Shown piece after piece: positions 3,687 through 63,742 of a DNA stretch of 64,000 bases. Below the pieces are notes generated by a model. That model saw nothing but the letters and a program-made list of their open reading frames with translations. It searched no databases and was not told the DNA's origin. Numbering within the stretch: position 1 is the stretch's first letter; each line of letters starts with the position of its first letter. This stretch comes from a virus (lineage: Duplodnaviria > Heunggongvirae > Uroviricota > Caudoviricetes): IMG/VR virus record IMGVR_UViG_3300014205_000201. One strand, given 5' to 3'. Position numbers and translations under genes: made by a program.

Positions 3687-4640
3687 CTATGTCGCCTTAC
3701 CTACTGGAAGTAGAACTGGTAATAAAGAAAGCGCATTTTTTACTTTAGCCCAAACTTCATCAGGTTTTTTATATATGTCTTTCTCCCATAATCTTAGAAC
3801 TATGTATCCTTGCTTCCCAAGTGTATCGTTTACAATCGAATCTCTAATAAGCGCTTTAGGTTGGGTATGCCAATAGTTTCCATCAACAAATATACAAAGA
3901 TTAGGTGAAATAAAAATATCAGGAAGCCCAAACAAAGCAACATGTGTTTTAAAAATAATATTATTTGTTGTCAGAAGAGACTGCATTAATCTCTCAGGTT
4001 TGGTATTGTTACATGATGAAAACGTTTTTGCCCTTTGTTTTAATCCTTTTTCAGATTTACAATATTCAATTAATTTTTTACTAATTTTTTCGGCTTGTCC
4101 TTCAACAAATGGATGCGGTTTTCCTTTTAATGCATTGCTTATTTTCAATTTTCTTTCTGTTGAAAGAGGACTACATTTTCTGCCATTATATTTTGCTGGT
4201 TTTCTTTTTTTCCCATTAAGAGGTCTGTGCTTTCCACGCATACCATAATTTGGATATTCTTCTTCATTAAATTTTTTTCCAACATGAGCGGCGCTCAATT
4301 TTTGTTTTGTTTCCTGAGTTAAGTGCCTTCCTTTAAGTGTTTCGCCTATTTTTCTTCGCCATTCATCGTTTTTAACTAATCCTTTTACACCACTTGGTTT
4401 TCCCCTTTTCGATTCACTTAGTTTTCGCTTTGTATCTTCAGACATAGGCTTCCCCTTATTCCAACTTGGTTTTCCCATATGGGAAATTGAGAGTTTTTGC
4501 CTAGTTTCTAATGAAAATATTTTATCTTTTTTGATTCCAGCTTTATGTCCGCATATGTATTTGCATCGAGGATTTATTATTAACTGACCACAACCACAAG
4601 CGCAATATTTTTGCTTAGTTTTATCCAAGATAACAACCAC
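3687..4640 (-). CDS. homing-endonuclease-like protein: N-terminal Cys cluster, three NUMOD3 repeats, C-terminal Vsr/DUF559-like PD-(D/E)XK domain
   Basis: Repeats ETRQKLSISHMGKPSWNKG / DTKRKLSESKRGKPSGVKG / ETKQKLSAAHVGKK. C-terminal IFVDGNYWHTQPKALIRD resembles Vsr FVDGCFWH. Confidence 0.55.
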   Translation of the reverse strand: MVVILDKTKQKYCACGCGQLIINPRCKYICGHKAGIKKDKIFSLETRQKLSISHMGKPSWNKGKPMSEDTKRKLSESKRGKPSGVKGLVKNDEWRRKIGETLKGRHLTQETKQKLSAAHVGKKFNEEEYPNYGMRGKHRPLNGKKRKPAKYNGRKCSPLSTERKLKISNALKGKPHPFVEGQAEKISKKLIEYCKSEKGLKQRAKTFSSCNNTKPERLMQSLLTTNNIIFKTHVALFGLPDIFISPNLCIFVDGNYWHTQPKALIRDSIVNDTLGKQGYIVLRLWEKDIYKKPDEVWAKVKNALSLLPVLLPVGKAT

Positions 4641-4935: not shown

Positions 4936-5484
4936 CTAGATTACTCCACGAATCAAAAAGAACTCCACTAACGCGGAAATCAATAATACCACTATACAAA
5001 CTATGAAAGTTACAGCAATGGTCTTCACAATTTCCGGATAAACCCCCGTAGTTTTTCGGGTAATGGTCTTTCCATCTAAATCCACAAAAACCGTTTTACG
5101 TTGCTTAAACAACTGCACCAACTTAATAGAACGCATAATAACATAAGCATAAACCGCTAACTCAACATATACAAATATGTTAATAAGACTCCACCACCAT
5201 GGCTGACCATAACTTGCAACCACAACTCCAGTATTCCACATAACATAACCAAGCCAAATCCATCCGGCACCAGGAATCATAGTTATACCAGCAACAACCA
5301 AATTATTATTAAAAATCGATGAGGGTGTGGCTACTTGAGATTTAGCATTATTATTTTCCATTATCGCTTGATTCTCGCTAGCCGTATGAACCGGTAAAAC
5401 ATTTGGTAATAATAATATAAAAAATAAAGCAATAAATATAATAGTGAATTGTTTAAAGCTGTGGAATCTTATATTATCAAACAT
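4936..5484 (-). CDS. polytopic membrane protein (182 aa)
   Basis: four or more hydrophobic helices; WWW motif. Confidence 0.5.
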   Translation of the reverse strand: MFDNIRFHSFKQFTIIFIALFFILLLPNVLPVHTASENQAIMENNNAKSQVATPSSIFNNNLVVAGITMIPGAGWIWLGYVMWNTGVVVASYGQPWWWSLINIFVYVELAVYAYVIMRSIKLVQLFKQRKTVFVDLDGKTITRKTTGVYPEIVKTIAVTFIVCIVVLLISALVEFFLIRGVI

Positions 5485-5914: not shown

Positions 5915-6319
5915 TTAGTCTTTTATTTTATTGTGTTGTGGAAGATTTTTATACCCTTTATTTTCAGCGAAACACTTTTGGGTACAATAAATTTGCTTTT
6001 TGCTATTAGGTATGAACAATTTTTTACAATTTAGGCAAACTTTTGGTGCCCATAGTTCACCATTCTTTCGCTCTCGGATGTGATGTATTATAGAATTTTT
6101 TTTACGATAATATTTCATTGTTCGTTCAATCTCTTTTTGTGGATTATCTATGTATTGAAAATGGGCTGCTTCTAACCTTTCCTTCTGATGCTTAATGTAA
6201 GAGCGGTGTGCAATATCTTTGCTTCTTTCTAAGTTTGCATAGTAATATTGTTTGCCACGTTCTCGCTCTGCTTCTTTTTGTTTCTCTGTCATTTTGGCGT
6301 ATCTTTCTGCGGTTGGCAT
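5915..6319 (-). CDS. basic zinc-ribbon protein, possibly a degenerate HNH (HHIRERKNG ... CLNCKK ... CTQKC)
   Basis: Lys/Arg-rich; Cys pairs CLNC and CTQKC. Confidence 0.4.
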   Translation of the reverse strand: MPTAERYAKMTEKQKEAERERGKQYYYANLERSKDIAHRSYIKHQKERLEAAHFQYIDNPQKEIERTMKYYRKKNSIIHHIRERKNGELWAPKVCLNCKKLFIPNSKKQIYCTQKCFAENKGYKNLPQHNKIKD

Positions 6320-17825: not shown

Positions 17826-19250
17826 CTATACTATGTCTGAATCATATCCAGTGTTTGATCCTTTGGTTTCGGCTTTTGGTTTTTTGGTAACTGATGGGGC
17901 TGCGGTTGCAAGTTTTTCAACGGTGTCAGTTGCGTTAAGGATTGGGGATGTGTTCTTGCCAATGTTTTCTAGGATCTTGTTGATGTCTAATCCCATATCT
18001 TTTGCTACTTCGGACATTGTGCCAGCGCCAAATCCAGTTTGAGGATTAAGGATGCCACTATCTGCACCACTGTAGACTTTTATTTGCGCTTGTTTCATCG
18101 CTTCTGCCCATGCGTTTGCTTGTACTTTTTTGATTTCAACTGTTGCTTTGATTACTTCTAAGCCCATACCTGCATCGTTATATTTTTTCATTGCGTCGGC
18201 GCGTTTTTCGGTTGCGGCTGCTTCTGCAAATCCAGTGGCTTGAACTACTGCTGCGTTGGCTTCACCTTGTACTTGTTTGACTTTTGCTTCAGCTTGCCCT
18301 TTTTGATATGTTGCTGATGCTTCTCCTTCAGCCTTGGTGATTGTTGCTTGTCTGTCGATTTCGGCTTGGCCCACTGTTAATGCGCGTTCGGCTTCGATTT
18401 GTTTGGCGTTTGCTCTGGCGGTTGCTTCTTGTACTTGTAAGTCTTTTTCTTTAGCCTTTAGTTGTACTGCTTTGTCTTTTTCTTGTTCTTTGATACCGAT
18501 GGCTTCTTGTGTTGCGATTTGCGCTTCTCTGTAAGCTCTTTCGTTTGTTGCTTTGTTTACTTCTGATTCTTTTTTAGCTGTTGATTCTACGATTGTTGCT
18601 TCTTTTTCTTGTCCGGCGACTGCCTTTCGGGTTTCGGCGTTGATGATGCTTGATTGTCTTTCTTCTAAGTCATGGATGACTGTGTAGCCTTCGATATCTG
18701 AGAAGTGGATGACTTCTAATTCGATTACTTTCATGCCCCATTCGCCAAGTTCTTCGTTGACTGCTTTTTCTACGCTTTCGCTAAATTCTTTGCGTTTCTT
18801 CATAATGTCAATGATTGTGTAACCCATAGACATGTTTCGGGTGACTGCTTTGATTACGTTGCTTACATCACTGTCAACTTCTGTTAGGCTAACTTTTGTG
18901 CTGACTCTTTCTGATGCTTGAAGCGGATCGGTTATGTTTAGCCATGCTACCACATCGCCTGCGAACTTTGCCATGTTCATATCGCGTAGAGGGATGTTGT
19001 CTACTTTGATTTGTAAGTTTTCTAATGGTATCTTTGAGATTTGCTGTATGATTGGTATGCGCCAGTAGCTTGAGCCTGAATAGCCTGTGCCTTCGCGGGT
19101 ACAGTAGATGCGTCTACCTTTTGATCTGGTTACGACTACATGCGCTTCGTTAGGGGGTACTACGGTGTAGCTTGATTTTACTGCCAATAGTACGATGACT
19201 ATAGGGATTACTATTGCCAATAATGGCAAGATAATGTCTGTTTCGCTCAT
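17826..19250 (-). CDS. SPFH/band-7 (flotillin-like) membrane protein, 474 aa
   Basis: N-terminal TM, SPFH-like core, long E/A/Q-rich coiled-coil flotillin-type C-terminus. Confidence 0.65.
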   Translation of the reverse strand: MSETDIILPLLAIVIPIVIVLLAVKSSYTVVPPNEAHVVVTRSKGRRIYCTREGTGYSGSSYWRIPIIQQISKIPLENLQIKVDNIPLRDMNMAKFAGDVVAWLNITDPLQASERVSTKVSLTEVDSDVSNVIKAVTRNMSMGYTIIDIMKKRKEFSESVEKAVNEELGEWGMKVIELEVIHFSDIEGYTVIHDLEERQSSIINAETRKAVAGQEKEATIVESTAKKESEVNKATNERAYREAQIATQEAIGIKEQEKDKAVQLKAKEKDLQVQEATARANAKQIEAERALTVGQAEIDRQATITKAEGEASATYQKGQAEAKVKQVQGEANAAVVQATGFAEAAATEKRADAMKKYNDAGMGLEVIKATVEIKKVQANAWAEAMKQAQIKVYSGADSGILNPQTGFGAGTMSEVAKDMGLDINKILENIGKNTSPILNATDTVEKLATAAPSVTKKPKAETKGSNTGYDSDIV

Positions 19251-31306: not shown

Positions 31307-32188
31307 ATGTCAGAACAAACTTGGATAGGCTACAAAGATTTAGAACCCATCAGAAGACTCCGAAATGAGGGTAGAGAACTTATAGGAAAAACCCTAACCC
31401 TTACAGAGAAAAGAGATGGTGAAAACGTATCAACTCGTTTAGTAAACGCAAGCATCCCCATAGGTATGGTAAACCTACAAATTAGTTCACACAATCAAGA
31501 AGAAGCAGCACCCGACATAATCAACCGATTCAAAGCGACCAAAGAATACAACAAAGTCAAAACATTACTCGAAACTGAACTAACATTTCATCACAACTAT
31601 ATTCTCTATGGAGAACTTCTAAAAGAAGTAGGCCCAACACGGATAGAACCCAGACGAAAAAAACTTCAATGGATATTATTCGATGCTTGGGATTGCGAAC
31701 TAAAACGTTACATCAGCTACACACAGTTATACCAGCTAGCATACCATTACAAGATTCCAATCGTCAAAGCAGTAGACTTCTTTATTCCTACCAGTGAAGA
31801 GGAGCTAGCTAGCAAAATCGCGGCCTTAATGAAATGGTGCAAACGCCACCGGCGAGAAGGCATTGTAGGTAAAGACTATGAGAACCAAGTGTTCTTTAAA
31901 GAAAAGATAGACTTACCAAAACTGCCCAAGCTACCCAGAGATCCACAAATCCAATTACCATCAATGACACAGGAAAAGATAATTCGAGCGCTACAACATG
32001 CATACGATGAAGTGGGAGAAACTAACTGGAAAAACGTAAAAGTAGCTATGCCAATCGTAGCAAAGCATTTCTCGATAGAAGCAAAAGAACATAACTTTAG
32101 CACACCCAAAAACATGTTCCAACTATGGATGAACACCCCAACAGAACAAATTAAACCGTTGCCAGTTGAATCAGAAAAGTCAACATAA
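31307..32188 (+). CDS. ATP-dependent polynucleotide ligase (RNA or minimal DNA ligase; covalent nucleotidyltransferase superfamily)
   Basis: motif I TEKRDGENV (KxDG); motif III-like ILYGELL; motif IV EGIVGK; motif V-like KEK; 293 aa. Confidence 0.55.
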   Translation: MSEQTWIGYKDLEPIRRLRNEGRELIGKTLTLTEKRDGENVSTRLVNASIPIGMVNLQISSHNQEEAAPDIINRFKATKEYNKVKTLLETELTFHHNYILYGELLKEVGPTRIEPRRKKLQWILFDAWDCELKRYISYTQLYQLAYHYKIPIVKAVDFFIPTSEEELASKIAALMKWCKRHRREGIVGKDYENQVFFKEKIDLPKLPKLPRDPQIQLPSMTQEKIIRALQHAYDEVGETNWKNVKVAMPIVAKHFSIEAKEHNFSTPKNMFQLWMNTPTEQIKPLPVESEKST

Positions 32189-33690: not shown

Positions 33691-34019
33691 TGCCTAACAC
33701 CTATGTTAAAGTTATCCGTGATTGGAAAGCATCCGGTGGTCCTGATGTCTATTGTCCTGTTGATGTAGCCACTGGTAAAATGTATGTGGGTTTAAGTCTT
33801 ATCGGTTTTGTTCCTAAAGGTGGGATAATTGTGGGGGAGTTTGATGAAAAGACCGATACGCTCACGTTAAATAAACCAAAAGAAACAGTGGCGGGGGTAG
33901 TTGAGAAGAGGGACAACACCCTAAGTCAAAGGGAAGGCGTGGGTTCGACTCCCATCCCCCGACCATCTTCGATTAACAATCAGAAACCAACAGTTAGTCA
34001 ACGACCACAAAATATATAA
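33687..34019 (+). CDS. hypothetical protein (110 aa); its 3' third overlaps a tRNA-like element
   Basis: SD GGAGGAT. Confidence 0.4.
   Translation: MMPNTYVKVIRDWKASGGPDVYCPVDVATGKMYVGLSLIGFVPKGGIIVGEFDEKTDTLTLNKPKETVAGVVEKRDNTLSQREGVGSTPIPRPSSINNQKPTVSQRPQNI
33891..33963 (+). tRNA. tRNA-Asp(GUC)-like 73-nt element (degenerate): full cloverleaf by standard numbering but with G1-A72 and A27-A43 mismatches and A33 instead of U33
   Basis: Acceptor GCGGGGG / CCCCCGA. D arm GTTG-AGAAGAGGGA-CAAC. Anticodon arm CCCT-AAGTCAA-AGGG. T arm GTGGG-TTCGACT-CCCAT. Discriminator C then CA. Confidence 0.3.
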
Positions 34020-34463: not shown

Positions 34464-34706
34464 ATGTTGGTGATATACGGATGGCGAGGAAGAAGTCCAC
34501 AAGGGTTAATGTGGCTATACAGAAATATGCACCAACAATTCTTTGGCTTCGATGTACTACCCTATCAAGAGTTCTGCAAAATGCTAAATAATGCAGCATG
34601 TGAAAACCGAACCAAACACCAGCATTCATGGCGGCTAAAATATACTGGTGAATCACTGACGGATGAATCACGTTTAACAGGAGATAATGGAAATGCAGAC
34701 AAATGA
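34464..34706 (+). CDS. hypothetical protein (80 aa)
   Basis: co-directional packing. Confidence 0.4.
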   Translation: MLVIYGWRGRSPQGLMWLYRNMHQQFFGFDVLPYQEFCKMLNNAACENRTKHQHSWRLKYTGESLTDESRLTGDNGNADK

Positions 34707-35211
34707 ACAGGTAAGAAAAAAGCATCGAGAAAACTATGCTTTAAGTAATGGTGCGTATCTGCAAGCAAATAAAAAATGGAAGGTTGAACATCCAGGTAAA
34801 GAATATGAGGCAGGTATTAACTGGATTGTTAGAAATCGGCATAAGAAAAGAGCGCAAATGATTGCTCATCGATTGATTCCCCTAAAACCCGTTTGCGAAA
34901 TATGTGGAGGAATTGATAGATTACAAAGACACCACAAAGACTATGGCAAACCCTTAGAGGTTTTAACCCTATGTAATCCTTGCCATAATGCTTTGGAAGT
35001 AATTGAGCCAGCAAAGTATAGTAATCTACCTCAATTAAGATTCTATAATGGAGTCATTCCAGTTGAAATCTTAGATAGTACCTGTGTTGGGACTGGTAAA
35101 AAGTGGCCTTGTAAAATACTTGCAACAGGAGAAGTAAAGGCGTTGCATGTTGGGCGACTTTGTTATTTACCCAAAAGACGGCTAGAAAGACAAAAGACAA
35201 CGGAGCCTTAA
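34687..35211 (+). CDS. HNH endonuclease (paralog group of three)
   Basis: CEICGG...RHHKDYGKPLEVLTLCNPCHNALE. Confidence 0.6.
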   Translation: MEMQTNEQVRKKHRENYALSNGAYLQANKKWKVEHPGKEYEAGINWIVRNRHKKRAQMIAHRLIPLKPVCEICGGIDRLQRHHKDYGKPLEVLTLCNPCHNALEVIEPAKYSNLPQLRFYNGVIPVEILDSTCVGTGKKWPCKILATGEVKALHVGRLCYLPKRRLERQKTTEP

Positions 35212-36413: not shown

Positions 36414-37160
36414 ATGAAAAATTTGTACTATTGTCTTGATTGTTTCGCTAAAATTCCTAAAGATAGTATTTTAAAAGAAGGCCAAGTATACCGATTAAGA
36501 CAGCCTACAAAATGCTATATTTGCCACAAGACATTTAATCGTCCTATTAAGTTAATGAAGTTTTCAAAAGATAGTATTAGACAAGATTATTTTAGAAAAT
36601 GTTTAACATGTGGTTTTGAAGCCAAAACACTCGATGACCTTAAACTGTTTAAACCCCGAAAAGGAAAATACTTTGCTTATGGTGTTGATGCTATCTGCCT
36701 AAATTGTCATACTGCAAAAAACATTGAATATATGAAACGCCAAAGAGAAGTTAATCCCCAAAAAAGTAGAGAGGCAGTAATGAAAAATTATTATAAAGAC
36801 CCTTCAAAACAGAGGGCAAGGGATTATTCATGGCGATTTATACAACCTGATACAAAATGTGCCGCTTGTGGCGCTACAGGTGTTCCATTACAAAAACATC
36901 ATCCTGATTATTCGCAATGGGATTTAGTGATAACACTATGTCGTAAGTGTCATGCAAAGCTTCGTAAGACTCCTAAAAAAATTAAGCCTAAATTTTCTCT
37001 TTGTAGCCAATGCCAAAATAAAACTTATCCTCCTGGTTATGTGATAACTTGGAGATGTTTAGGTCATAATGCTGATGTAAGCCCTATCCGCGAACGGTGG
37101 TTTACCTGTTCTACTTTTAAGCCTATTAATACAATCCGAAATGGGGTTCAATCAACATGA
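36414..37160 (+). CDS. HNH endonuclease with N-terminal zinc fingers (248 aa)
   Basis: CAACGATGVPLQKHHPDYSQWDLVITLCRKCHAKL. Confidence 0.6.
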   Translation: MKNLYYCLDCFAKIPKDSILKEGQVYRLRQPTKCYICHKTFNRPIKLMKFSKDSIRQDYFRKCLTCGFEAKTLDDLKLFKPRKGKYFAYGVDAICLNCHTAKNIEYMKRQREVNPQKSREAVMKNYYKDPSKQRARDYSWRFIQPDTKCAACGATGVPLQKHHPDYSQWDLVITLCRKCHAKLRKTPKKIKPKFSLCSQCQNKTYPPGYVITWRCLGHNADVSPIRERWFTCSTFKPINTIRNGVQST

Positions 37161-40231: not shown

Positions 40232-40440
40232 TTGAAATTGTCTTCATACTTTTCTTGGATAGTTAAGACTTCGCAATGTTGGCATCGTCGGATAACTTGA
40301 TTAGAATTTTTTATTACTGACCGTGCAAGTGTTTGGTACACTCTACAATAAGCCTTTTGTTTTTCTTTGTTTTTGTAGGGCAACTTATTGTTTACTCCTT
40401 ATTAGTATAGTAAACCATTACCCTGATATAAAAGGGTTTA

Positions 40441-40875
40441 CTAAACCTTGTCGTGGGATGCCGAAATATCACTAACTGTCAGTTCATCAAGGGATACTAT
40501 GCCTTCTACTTCTGAGCTAATTAGCAAAGTTTTAACATTTGCTTTTTTGGCACGTTCAAGCATATCTTTGGTTCCTTTGCTGTGTTCAAGGTCGTTATGA
40601 AAAGCAACAACTAAGATAGGCTTGTGTTTATCCAGCATCATTTGGTTGCGAATTGGTCCCGCAGCTTTACCATACTTGAACCAATCAGCCTTTTCCTCAA
40701 TAACATTCATCCCTAAATCTTTAGCAAGCCAACCGCTAATTTTATCAGCGCCTCGACAGCCCCCCTCTATAATTGTTATCTGTTTAGGGTAGGTATTTAG
40801 TGTTAAAGATTGAAGGTAATGCTTTATCAATTCTACATGGTTCCAGTTTCTATCACCACAGATTAAAATTTTCAT
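40441..40875 (-). CDS. SLOG-superfamily protein (DUF2493/YspA-like)
   Basis: GGCRGADKISGWLAKDLG ... GKAAGPIRNQMML. Confidence 0.5.
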   Translation of the reverse strand: MKILICGDRNWNHVELIKHYLQSLTLNTYPKQITIIEGGCRGADKISGWLAKDLGMNVIEEKADWFKYGKAAGPIRNQMMLDKHKPILVVAFHNDLEHSKGTKDMLERAKKANVKTLLISSEVEGIVSLDELTVSDISASHDKV

Positions 40876-41474
40876 TTAATTACCTCAGTAAATTGTGTAA
40901 TAGATTGTTGTTGTCGTTGAAATAAAAGTTTTCGAGCTAACGAGTTTGCTTTAGATGATACAACTGTTGCTTTTTTCATACCAGTATTTCTTAAGAACTT
41001 ATCATAAAGACGATCATGCTCAGATTTAACTGGTGTTTGCAATTTTGGTTCATCAAGAACAGAAATGCCCTTCGCATCAGGGTAGTATGTTCCTACGCCT
41101 AAATCTTGAAAAGCTTTCCGATTTTTTATTAATTCTTTAAAGTCACAAATAAAAGCGCAAGAATAATCAAAGTAACGTGCGTAATTCTGAGTTTGTAGAA
41201 TAGCAGTTTTAACTTTATCACCTATATGTTTGACTTCAAAAGCCCAGAGTTTTCCATCTTTCCAAGCGGCAACATCTACCAATCCATAAAGGTCATGTTG
41301 GTCTAGTGATGCTACTTCTTCACAGTCATCATATCTGTTCCAGTAAAGGAATGGCATATTGTTAACATGTACTGAAGGACACCAAAACTCCATTGGATAA
41401 ACCCTGTAGCCATTACTGCTTAACCATTGGGCTAAGGCTGGGTAATCTCCAACGTAATGTTTTGGGTAAGGCAA
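40872..41474 (-). CDS. PD-(D/E)XK-family nuclease-like protein (Hjc-like core), 200 aa
   Basis: GLVDVAAWKDGKLWAFEVKH (D...EVK); ATGA-overlapped with the SLOG gene. Confidence 0.45.
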   Translation of the reverse strand: MPYPKHYVGDYPALAQWLSSNGYRVYPMEFWCPSVHVNNMPFLYWNRYDDCEEVASLDQHDLYGLVDVAAWKDGKLWAFEVKHIGDKVKTAILQTQNYARYFDYSCAFICDFKELIKNRKAFQDLGVGTYYPDAKGISVLDEPKLQTPVKSEHDRLYDKFLRNTGMKKATVVSSKANSLARKLLFQRQQQSITQFTEVIK

Positions 41475-46134: not shown

Positions 46135-46575
46135 CTAAAACCTCCGATCTGGTTTACCTTTTAATACAAAAAGCGTAATCGGTGAAGGTGAAGTACAGGG
46201 CTTTTGAGTTCTTGCATCTATCCATCTGATTCGGCCCATTGACCTGAGTTCTGCACCGGCTTCTAACATTAGGTTAACATAGCTTTGTGTTGGCAGAACC
46301 ATTACGCTTGTTTTTCCCTTTTTGCTTTCCTCGATAGCTTTCCGCACAAACGCCGTAGGTCCATGGTTATTGAGTGCGTCTTTCTTTCGGAAAGGTGGGT
46401 TTATCCAGTTAACATTGCCCCAGGTTGCTTCTATACCGTCTTGCTTGTATGGGTAGGGGCATGGGTCAAAATCAAAATGGAACTCTGAATTTAATGGCTC
46501 GAAGATGTCTTTAGGGATTAGCCAGTATTGAGCATCATTGGAGTATTTGATTGGTGTGAGTAATTGCTGTATCAC
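46135..46575 (-). CDS. DNA N6-adenine methyltransferase, phage Dam family (PF05869-like)
   Basis: FDFDPCP ... WINPPF (NPPF motif IV); 146 aa. Confidence 0.6.
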   Translation of the reverse strand: MIQQLLTPIKYSNDAQYWLIPKDIFEPLNSEFHFDFDPCPYPYKQDGIEATWGNVNWINPPFRKKDALNNHGPTAFVRKAIEESKKGKTSVMVLPTQSYVNLMLEAGAELRSMGRIRWIDARTQKPCTSPSPITLFVLKGKPDRRF

Positions 46576-47389: not shown

Positions 47390-47733
47390 TCACCGCCAGA
47401 TTTTGTTAAACCATCAGCGACTGCTCTATCCCCCCATTTTAATGGGACATCAGATTCATCGATGTATCTTTCATAATATGGATTAAGCGCCCACCAGTAA
47501 ACCTTCTTGCGAATATCATGAGGCACAATCGACCTACCTATAGTAGATAAAGCCAAATTAGATAGCCAAAGACCGAACCCATGAATGCTTGTTTCAGGAT
47601 GACGCAAAGCTACTTCGCTTAAGCGTTCACCCGTAAGAACCAAATCTTGAAGCACCTTTGGAAAAACACCTTCACGTTTACTTGAGGCAATAAGAAGCTG
47701 CATTAGTTCCTCATCGGTCAATAGTTTTCTCAT
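47386..47733 (-). CDS. hypothetical protein (115 aa)
   Basis: ATGA overlap. Confidence 0.45.
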   Translation of the reverse strand: MRKLLTDEELMQLLIASSKREGVFPKVLQDLVLTGERLSEVALRHPETSIHGFGLWLSNLALSTIGRSIVPHDIRKKVYWWALNPYYERYIDESDVPLKWGDRAVADGLTKSGGE

Positions 47734-48032
47734 TATAGAACCACCTTCATAGTGCCAAACTTGCCAACATTAAGTTGCATTTCTCCTTTGAAGCTAGTTA
47801 CATAACCGTTTTCAATCTGTATCCAATCTCCATTCTGAACAAGATCTATTTGTTCATTCCAAAGAGTTAATTTCATTGAGTCGCCATTGCCATCTATTAT
47901 TGTGGCATCACATATCCGATAGGTTTCGTCTTTAAACCGTGACTTAACTTCTCTAATGCTACTTTTTTCTCCGATTTGAGCTTTCAAACTAACTCTTTTA
48001 GATCCATCTTGAAGTTCTTTAATTTGAGTCAT
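47733..48032 (-). CDS. hypothetical protein (99 aa)
   Basis: co-directional packing. Confidence 0.45.
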   Translation of the reverse strand: MTQIKELQDGSKRVSLKAQIGEKSSIREVKSRFKDETYRICDATIIDGNGDSMKLTLWNEQIDLVQNGDWIQIENGYVTSFKGEMQLNVGKFGTMKVVL

Positions 48033-62282: not shown

Positions 62283-62930
62283 TTAGCATTTAACCTTATG
62301 CTTATCAGACACTTCAACACTAACTGGTGGAGCATGGAGAAGTTTAGTGAGCACTTCTTTGTATGGTCCGCGATGGTTGATCTTGCCTTTTTTAATTATC
62401 CATTCTGGATGTGCCTCTAGAACGATACCTTGTCTAACCCAATCATTGGCGATAATTAAAGCCGCTTTTGCATCGGTATTGTAACATAACCAATCTAACC
62501 CGTTAGTAGGAAACTCATGATAAGATTTCAAGCGAAAATCCTGTGGCACTTTTACTTGCTTCTGCCCTAAAGGTCTATGCCAAACAATTTGGCCGAGTAA
62601 ACGTTCTGTTCCATGAATCGTGTAATACTCAACTGATTTTGTAGAAACTTGTTCAAGTTGTGCCAATTCTTCTTCAGGATTATTTACAACATGTAAACCT
62701 ATCTCATGCTGAGAACCACTTAACAATGCAAGCATTTCATCATCTGGAAGCGCATGAATGTTAAAGAACCACATTGCTTTCACTTCAGGTATAGAATTAT
62801 TAATTAAATCAGCAAGCATTTTAGCATAAGCCAAATAACCACGTTTAGTTCTCCAACCTAGATAAGTGTAAAGAAAACTTTTAGCCCTAGACGGATAAGG
62901 ATAATCTACATCAATACGCAATTTAATCAT
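62283..62930 (-). CDS. hypothetical protein, possibly a carbohydrate-modifying enzyme (215 aa)
   Basis: ATGA-overlapped with GT2; His-rich motifs HEIGLH and IHGTERL. Confidence 0.35.
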   Translation of the reverse strand: MIKLRIDVDYPYPSRAKSFLYTYLGWRTKRGYLAYAKMLADLINNSIPEVKAMWFFNIHALPDDEMLALLSGSQHEIGLHVVNNPEEELAQLEQVSTKSVEYYTIHGTERLLGQIVWHRPLGQKQVKVPQDFRLKSYHEFPTNGLDWLCYNTDAKAALIIANDWVRQGIVLEAHPEWIIKKGKINHRGPYKEVLTKLLHAPPVSVEVSDKHKVKC

Positions 62931-63742
62931 TAAGCCATTACCTTATGATAAAGCTTCGATACCAATCGGCGGGGATACCAAGGATATGCATGACGGCAAC
63001 TCTTCTTATAAGCCTCATTAATTAATTGATGAGGTACATCAAGCGCTTGTAATCTTAAACGGAGATAACGCCAAAGCAATTCAAACTCTTCACGCTTCTG
63101 AGTAAAAGAACCCGCCTTATTATGAATCCGATAAAATAGCAAAGGCTCATCTACAAGCCTCCATTGCAACCCAGCTATAACCGTATCCAATAAAAAGATA
63201 AGATCTTCTCCATGACGAAGCGATCCCTCAAATGTAACTTTATCAAATATCCATATAGGCAATATAATGCTGCTAAAATTTACATACATATTCTTTTCAA
63301 GCGCCCATTTAATTATAGAAGTTCGACTAAAATCTGGTGGTCTAAAGACATGTTGAGATTCTAACAGACTATTGCATTGATAATAACTTGTATATGTTGC
63401 AGTATTGGGTTTAACTAAAGCTAAGGAATGCTCAATAAAAGTAGGCGCATAACAATCATCAGCACTCAAATAAGCGATATAACTAGTCCTAGCGATATTC
63501 ACGCCTTTTTGACGCGCCATTCCAATTCCGCCATTAAATTTTGATTTATGAATTTTAATGATGGAATAACCAGTTTTATTAATATAATCTTCAACAACCT
63601 GAACCGTGTTATCTGTACTACCATCATCTATGATAATAACTTCGCCAGGTTGAACAGTTTGATTTCTAATACTCTCTAATGTTTCAACAATATATTTCTC
63701 AGCATTATATGCCGGAATGACAACGCTTATTTTAATTGACAT
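62930..63742 (-). CDS. family-2 glycosyltransferase
   Basis: VVIPAYNAEKYI ... IIIDDGSTDNT (classic GT2 N-terminus and DxD). Confidence 0.75.
   Translation of the reverse strand: MSIKISVVIPAYNAEKYIVETLESIRNQTVQPGEVIIIDDGSTDNTVQVVEDYINKTGYSIIKIHKSKFNGGIGMARQKGVNIARTSYIAYLSADDCYAPTFIEHSLALVKPNTATYTSYYQCNSLLESQHVFRPPDFSRTSIIKWALEKNMYVNFSSIILPIWIFDKVTFEGSLRHGEDLIFLLDTVIAGLQWRLVDEPLLFYRIHNKAGSFTQKREEFELLWRYLRLRLQALDVPHQLINEAYKKSCRHAYPWYPRRLVSKLYHKVMA

Follow-up and report, generated by a model that had tools for sequence, protein, structure and literature searches.

Viral SLOG domains belong mostly to the YpsA-like clade and are typically standalone proteins; that they sense signals derived from ADP-ribose, or break them down, is a prediction only (PMC9503650, PMC7824862). 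Sporadic viral fusions of SLOG to HNH, 3′-5′ exonuclease and SF1 helicase domains are on record, 'SLOG sensor-activated systems' have been proposed (PMC9503650), and ICP1 HelB has a DUF2493 C-terminus (bioRxiv 10.1101/671271). Among nucleases, MmcB is an SOS-regulated PD-(D/E)XK repair endonuclease that shields Caulobacter against mitomycin C and cisplatin (PMC9578287), while the archaeal PCNA-interacting protein (PIP) box, with the consensus QxxLxxFx, tethers Fen1, RNase HII, polymerases, NreA and Hef to PCNA (PMC7776575). Here we analyse two overlapping genes, one for a SLOG protein and one for a PD-(D/E)XK nuclease, in a 64,000-nucleotide stretch of viral DNA (Caudoviricetes; IMG/VR record IMGVR_UViG_3300014205_000201), the whole of which we call the window. 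A preliminary description of this DNA took the pair for a candidate ligand-sensing nuclease module. The two genes are probably independent of each other. One would encode an MmcB-like nuclease of repair or recombination that came from archaea and is probably tethered to PCNA, the other a common viral standalone SLOG.

The locus resembles each of these described systems in part. As in Thoeris ThsA (SIR2-SLOG) and the proposed 'SLOG sensor-activated' viral proteins, a SLOG stands beside an effector directed at nucleic acid or NAD, but here, unlike in ThsA, SLOG and effector come from separate genes, found together in this genome only; in further contrast to Thoeris, a Pfam survey of 97 open reading frames (ORFs) of the window found no TIR or similar signal-generating enzyme, and PADLOC gave no match to the system. 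The SLOG protein has the same GGxxGAD and AGPxRN motifs as the YAcAr/DUF2493 proteins (PF10686), the viral standalone forms of the YpsA-like clade, and like other viral SLOGs it is a small standalone protein in a viral region of DNA and nucleotide metabolism (PMC9503650, PMC7824862). It differs in an acidic, low-confidence C-terminal tail of 20-25 residues, which most relatives lack, and in being carried, probably, by an archaeal virus. The MmcB-like proteins (PF06319; SPO1766, structure 3dnx; Caulobacter MmcB) are proteobacterial, whereas the family of the window nuclease is archaeal and viral, has in its viral clade a beta-hairpin insert at about residues 35-62, and has a disordered tail ending in a PIP-like motif. 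An SOS or crosslink-repair role would be hypothetical for the present family, whose homology with MmcB is itself putative. NucS/EndoMS and other PCNA-tethered archaeal nucleases (Hjc, Fen1, XPF/Hef, NreA) likewise carry a short C-terminal motif of the QxxLxxF type (PMC7776575), but the window nuclease lacks the N-terminal domain of NucS, is not related to it at the sequence level, and is only predicted to bind PCNA.

Co-occurrence of the two genes

The features of the pair, in window positions, are as follows.

40872-41474, minus strand: nuclease gene, 200 amino acids, TTG start, upstream member of the pair
41274-41276, minus strand: codon of D67, the acid that opens the catalytic D...ExK motif, without variation among 65 family members
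41229-41237, minus strand: codons of E80-V81-K82 (GAA GTC AAA), the ExK motif, E80 and K82 invariant in 65 members
40890-40910, minus strand: PIP-box-like QQSITQF, residues 189-195, following a disordered linker
40882-40886, minus strand: GAGGT, a putative Shine-Dalgarno-like site 6 nucleotides 5′ of the SLOG ATG
40872-40875, minus strand: ATGA overlap of exactly 4 nucleotides, made of the nuclease TGA stop and the SLOG ATG start
40441-40875, minus strand: SLOG gene, 144 amino acids, ATG start, downstream member of the pair
40744-40764, minus strand: GGCRGAD, SLOG glycine-rich loop, residues 38-44; G38, G42, A43 and D44 invariant in 40 homologues
40636-40665, minus strand: AAGPIRNQMM, conserved SLOG motif, residues 71-80; G73, P74, R76 and N77 invariant in 40 homologues

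Since both genes lie on the minus strand, the nuclease is upstream and the SLOG downstream, the reverse of the order first given. The TTG start of the nuclease is supported by the N-terminus M-[PG]-YPK-x-YVG that homologues on other contigs share, and JGI's gene prediction for the source contig has the same length of 200 amino acids. The ATGA overlap is present on the coding strand as first described, but it does not distinguish the pair: the window has 106 pairs of neighbouring ORFs on the same strand, and an overlap of exactly 4 nucleotides is seen in 24 of them (one of 1 nucleotide in 9 more), making this the commonest type of junction there.

On the nuclease side, 13 metagenome loci were available, which represent seven distinct contexts besides the contig of the window itself (loci carry L numbers below). 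Their flanks were about 5-6 kb where the contig permits, several contigs being just 2-4 kb long. No SLOG gene was found near the nuclease in any of the 13, either by tblastn or with a hidden Markov model (HMM) from 40 SLOG sequences. The neighbour was an HNH gene in L001, L002, L016, L006 and L007, a pair of DNA methyltransferases in L003, L004 and L017, a DEAD_2 helicase together with ParB in L008, a phosphoadenosine phosphosulfate (PAPS) reductase in L011 and genes of unknown kind in L009 and L010. None of 21 further nuclease loci from genomes had a SLOG gene nearby (20 of them beyond L107, a viral-looking contig already seen as L003). Outside the HNH paralogues, the window showed no synteny with the other nuclease-bearing contigs.

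On the SLOG side, about 90 loci were surveyed altogether, 84 of them from IMG/VR with flanks of 4-5 kb and the rest being the closest homologues. Even a broad HMM found no member of the nuclease family near the 84. Their immediate neighbours were varied, including DNA polymerase A, uracil-DNA glycosylase, ribonucleotide reductase subunits, RecA, methyltransferases, dCMP deaminase, MazG, NADAR, phosphoribosyltransferase, endonuclease VII and a single PDDEXK_1 protein. The loci of the closest SLOG relatives, at 85%, 72% and 67% identity, likewise have no member of the nuclease family, and none of these SLOG genes is preceded by a nuclease; a 45-residue ORF with PAPS reductase and methyltransferases, or other small ORFs, precede them.

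Among the loci surveyed, then, the SLOG and the nuclease were seen together only on this contig, the combination being absent from the 13 metagenome and 21 genome nuclease loci and from the roughly 90 SLOG loci. Because the genes were never together elsewhere, from whichever side one looks, a functionally coupled ligand-sensing module is not supported. The suggestion that the pair serves in defence fares no better, with no meaningful PADLOC match for either protein: the SLOG protein had no hit and the nuclease only a Cas4 match at E=0.027, a generic fold signal, on which we reject a Cas4 identity. That SLOG-effector pairings have been proposed at all is correct, as a precedent of hypothetical kind built on sporadic SLOG fusions (PMC9503650).

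Families and motifs of the two proteins

The nuclease has the catalytic D...(D/E)xK motif and the restriction-endonuclease-like alpha/beta fold of the PD-(D/E)XK enzymes; alongside D67, E80 and K82, Q94 is invariant in the alignment of 65 family sequences. The preliminary description was right about the PD-(D/E)XK core, with D67 and E80-V81-K82 in place. Values from structural comparison were 9.1 for AF1548, 9.0 for PaqCI, 8.6 for NucS, 8.1 for XisH and 7.7 for Can2, and only 4.7-4.9 for Hjc; with this low Z and no Pfam match for the window protein, membership of Hjc (PF01870) is rejected.

The family is small and escapes annotation. The window protein matches nothing in Pfam or PHROG, and no tblastn match was found among 50,697 phage records of INPHARED, nor did blastn with the region of the gene pair match that collection. 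Two pattern scans of IMG/VR (A1, A7) found no family members, only 10 homologues occur among 5.8 billion clusters, and a profile search with HMMER, run exhaustively over 1.84 billion representatives, retrieved only 62 relatives at E≤0.001. Searched against the sequences of the PDB, the A1 profile had no match, and a broader family profile (A5) had 3dnx as its sole match (E=0.004), the alignment of about 120 residues covering the N-terminal helix, the E/D/ExK residues and the C-terminal helix. PF06319 (MmcB-like) is matched by 3 of the 65 members (best E=1.8e-4) and not, at E≤1, by the window nuclease. The sce7726 model (NCBIfam NF033832) gives the window nuclease 20.9 bits against a cutoff of 70, far too low a score for membership, which is rejected. 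With 3dnx as the only PDB match, three PF06319 matches and a sub-threshold sce7726 score, the sequence comparisons place the protein in an unannotated archaeal and viral family that appears distantly related to the MmcB-like repair nucleases. The most distant relative, on a Tannerellaceae contig from a metagenome-assembled genome (MAG) (L127, 5911-6546), is a true sce7726 member at 89.6 bits, and so links the archaeal and viral family, at superfamily level, to an uncharacterised bacterial one. None of the 65 members has a SLOG domain fused to it.

With a 19-sequence alignment of the family as query, a scan that took one genome for each prokaryotic species gave the 21 genome loci, 13 of them in Bathyarchaeia/Bathyarchaeota MAGs and 4 in Nitrososphaerales MAGs (17 archaeal MAGs), several on contigs of 0.6-2.4 Mb. 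In many Bathyarchaeia the nuclease lies in conserved synteny (L112, L114, L121 and L123-L126, around position 6000 in most), with a HAD hydrolase encoded on the other strand and, next in order, an MBL-fold protein of about 449 residues and a KH-like protein of about 171; RtcB lies upstream of the homologue in one locus. This is a context of cellular housekeeping type, without an operon partner and without SLOG. Since cellular homologues occupy conserved chromosomal synteny, a reading of the nuclease as a homing endonuclease is rejected.

Some loci merit separate mention. L114 is labelled Acidiferrales, a bacterium, yet has the same Bathyarchaeia synteny and is probably misbinned. In L006 and L007 the homologue (5001-5357) is cut to 118 residues directly past the catalytic core and is probably a frameshifted pseudogene; it adjoins an HNH gene and a cluster of glycosyltransferase and radical-SAM genes. 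In L003, L004, L017 and L107 (about 2900-5624 in L003) an N6/N4 and a C5 DNA methyltransferase are followed, after a 2-nucleotide gap, by the nuclease homologue, a unit that resembles a restriction-modification system and lies downstream of radical-SAM and methyltransferase genes; the contig is binned as Paceibacterota and looks viral.

The nuclease fold ends at about residue 165, and the model is disordered beyond, with a predicted local distance difference test score (pLDDT) below 50 at residues 170-176 and 181-200. The protein ends in ...QQSITQFTEVIK, and the C-termini of relatives offer QKTLSLF, QKSLSQFF, QKPLTVFF, QKQLTAF, QNRIDQF and QQTLDCW, along with looser forms such as RKISDWF. Of 83 non-identical family members, 32 have a strict Q..[LIMV]..[FWY] pattern among their 30 C-terminal residues, compared with 2.3 on average and 8 at most over 1000 shuffles of the tails; of other 30-residue windows in the same proteins, 1% have it. 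Among window ORFs of at least 100 residues, 1 of 77 has the pattern, presumably the nuclease itself. This short linear motif suggests that the family may be tethered to the PCNA clamp.

The SLOG protein, in turn, belongs to a known family, of which it is an ordinary representative. It matches PF10686 (YAcAr/DUF2493) with 41 bits against a gathering cutoff of 28.2 (E=1.7e-10) over model positions 1-66 of 66, and phrog_289 with E=2.2e-27. It has the Rossmannoid fold of SLOG proteins, with the loop rich in glycine and, following strand 3, polar residues that are conserved, so that the hallmarks first reported (GGCRGAD and AAGPIRNQMM) and the fold assigned from them are confirmed. Across 40 aligned homologues 16 columns are invariant, D44, R76, N77, H93, S99 and T102 among them, and D8, R9, K100 and D104 are nearly so, which argues for a specific pocket or active site. 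A protein search returned 938 homologues, of which the best 120 are all standalone proteins of 116-161 residues, and IMG/VR holds at least 561 matches. By analogy with its family, the protein may bind or process a nucleotide derivative such as an ADP-ribose-type signal.

Competing explanations

The reading we hold to be probable is that the two genes are independent neighbours in a densely packed early or DNA-metabolism region of a virus of about 87 kb, with an archaeal host of the Bathyarchaeia type. The upstream gene would encode an active PD-(D/E)XK endonuclease from a chromosomal archaeal family that a few viruses have picked up; its product would tether itself to the PCNA sliding clamp of the host by its QxxIxxF tail, and may cleave damaged or branched DNA in viral replication, recombination or repair. 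The downstream gene would encode a standalone YAcAr SLOG protein that, to judge by its family, acts alone on a nucleotide derivative. The 4-nucleotide overlap would then reflect genome compaction and co-transcription, with no dedicated pairing of sensor and effector.

Were the genes coupled, the SLOG protein would sense a nucleotide-derived ligand and switch the adjacent nuclease, as a defence, anti-defence or repair module recently assembled in this viral lineage. We consider this very unlikely: the ATGA overlap and the shared orientation do imply co-expression, and the proposed 'SLOG sensor-activated systems' (PMC9503650) and the DUF2493 C-terminus of ICP1 HelB (bioRxiv 10.1101/671271) speak for it, but the overlap is of the commonest kind in the window, the pair is missing from all nuclease and SLOG loci surveyed elsewhere, the 65 nucleases have no SLOG fusion while the best 120 of 938 SLOG relatives are standalone, and neither a TIR-like signal enzyme nor a meaningful PADLOC match turned up. 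Very unlikely, too, is a scenario in which a host-derived, PCNA-tethered MmcB-like nuclease has recently come under a YAcAr SLOG that senses an ADP-ribose-type immune or metabolic signal, as a new two-gene sensor-effector pair; if this is true, no earlier pairing of the kind would have been described from an archaeal virus. Two further readings concern the nuclease itself. It might be a restriction-type or host-DNA-degrading endonuclease of a virus that methylates its own genome, the SLOG gene being unrelated, as the methyltransferases directly 5′ of the homologue in L003, L004, L017 and L107 and a Dam-like methyltransferase encoded in the window would fit. Against this, the archaeal chromosomal homologues lie amid housekeeping genes with no adjoining methyltransferase, the Dam-like gene of the window, the methyltransferase-like ORF nearest to the nuclease (46135-46575), is about 4.7 kb away and so not adjacent as in a type II restriction-modification system, no specificity domain can be recognised in the small protein, and tails like those that bind the clamp typify replication and repair factors and not restriction enzymes, so we regard the reading as unlikely. 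An Hjc-like resolvase, which would resolve Holliday junctions or other branched intermediates of replication and recombination before packaging, seems to us improbable to a like degree. The arrangement E29...D67...E80-x-K82 matches the D-13-E-x-K spacing of the Hjc catalytic set, provided that the Hjc residue numbering is what we take it to be, one of the 65 family members matches Pfam Hjc (E=6e-6), and resolvases are encoded by many viruses; yet the window protein lacks that Pfam match, and the reading overlaps with our preferred one, a clamp-tethered structure-specific nuclease, from which it differs in substrate only.

Several observations weigh against our preferred reading of two independent genes. 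In related viruses both genes are found directly 3′ of homologous PAPS-reductase genes (39% identity): in L011 (195-1660) the reductase is followed by the nuclease, and in L100 (1165-2518) by the 45-residue ORF and the 85%-identical SLOG, so that both share a DNA-modification neighbourhood, though never together there. The two genes of the window are co-oriented, overlap and are very likely co-transcribed, so a link of function specific to this lineage is conceivable, and SLOG fusions to nucleic-acid enzymes are reported from viruses, if sporadically (PMC9503650). Because the nuclease family is small, just seven other viral contexts were sampled. As to the clamp, the strict PIP form is present in only 32 of the 83 members, and kinship among these inflates the enrichment. 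Neither the window nor the stretch of about 10 kb past its end (the inspected part of the contig) has a recognisable gene for PCNA or a polymerase, which would fit a dependence on the replication proteins of the host, yet is a gap in the argument. The assignment of the host, finally, is based on just two proteins.

The virus and its host

The window is part of a contig of about 87 kb, found in several samples and densely filled with small ORFs, for which the databases offer almost no match. Features other than the pair are listed here.

47733-48032, minus strand: single-stranded DNA-binding protein (SSB), 99 amino acids, with Saccharolobus SSB (E about 3e-9) and human SOSS-B1 as best PDB matches
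40405-40446, no strand assigned: inverted repeat with 15-nucleotide arms, 87% complementary, overlapping the SLOG stop codon
39650-40231 (minus), 34687-35211 (plus), 36414-37160 (plus) and 3687-4640 (minus): selfish endonuclease genes (HNH-like, NUMOD3+Vsr-type), an unusual load
33891-33964, plus strand: tRNA-Asp (GTC) amid a plus-strand gene block, 31 bits against an Rfam gathering score of 29
31307-32188, plus strand: RNA ligase, auxiliary gene
17826-19250, minus strand: SPFH/Band-7 protein of 474 amino acids, auxiliary gene
62930-63742, minus strand: type IV prepilin-peptidase-like ORF, auxiliary gene

The SSB is about 70% identical to cellular archaeal SSB/RPA proteins of 97 residues on megabase contigs, and its relatives named at NCBI include Bathyarchaeota and Methanocella, plus two bacterial MAGs. 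From this affinity, together with the distribution of the nuclease family, the element is likely to be an archaeal virus with a Bathyarchaeia-like host, in which a clamp of the PCNA type would be the relevant partner.

The inverted repeat falls in the 57-nucleotide gap that precedes the next gene. A tightly packed gene run may finish at this point, where the repeat might end or stabilise a transcript. Besides this hairpin at the SLOG stop codon, repeats near the gene pair are short and at chance level only. Scans for sigma-70 promoters and intrinsic terminators over 39-43 kb gave no excess over shuffles, such models being probably irrelevant for an archaeal virus, and an Rfam scan found nothing besides the tRNA. 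The window holds three paralogous HNH-like ORFs, with homologues scattered over other nuclease-bearing contigs, as well as the homing endonuclease of NUMOD3+Vsr type and, somewhere in the window, a LAGLIDADG endonuclease. Genes for glycosyltransferases, radical-SAM proteins and methyltransferases form a large cluster that runs past the window end (L128).

To our knowledge few viruses of Bathyarchaeia-type hosts have been found, and the window appears to belong to one, of about 87 kb, which carries a host-like SSB. On the reading we prefer, it is by accident of gene packing that a 'SLOG plus nuclease module' seems to exist, and it should not be passed on as a candidate defence system. What the locus does bring to notice is a nuclease family un-annotated by Pfam and PHROGs, a conserved chromosomal gene in Bathyarchaeia and Nitrososphaerales with a clamp-binding-like tail; should that tail bind PCNA, two archaeal lineages that have been little studied would each gain a nuclease of repair or replication.
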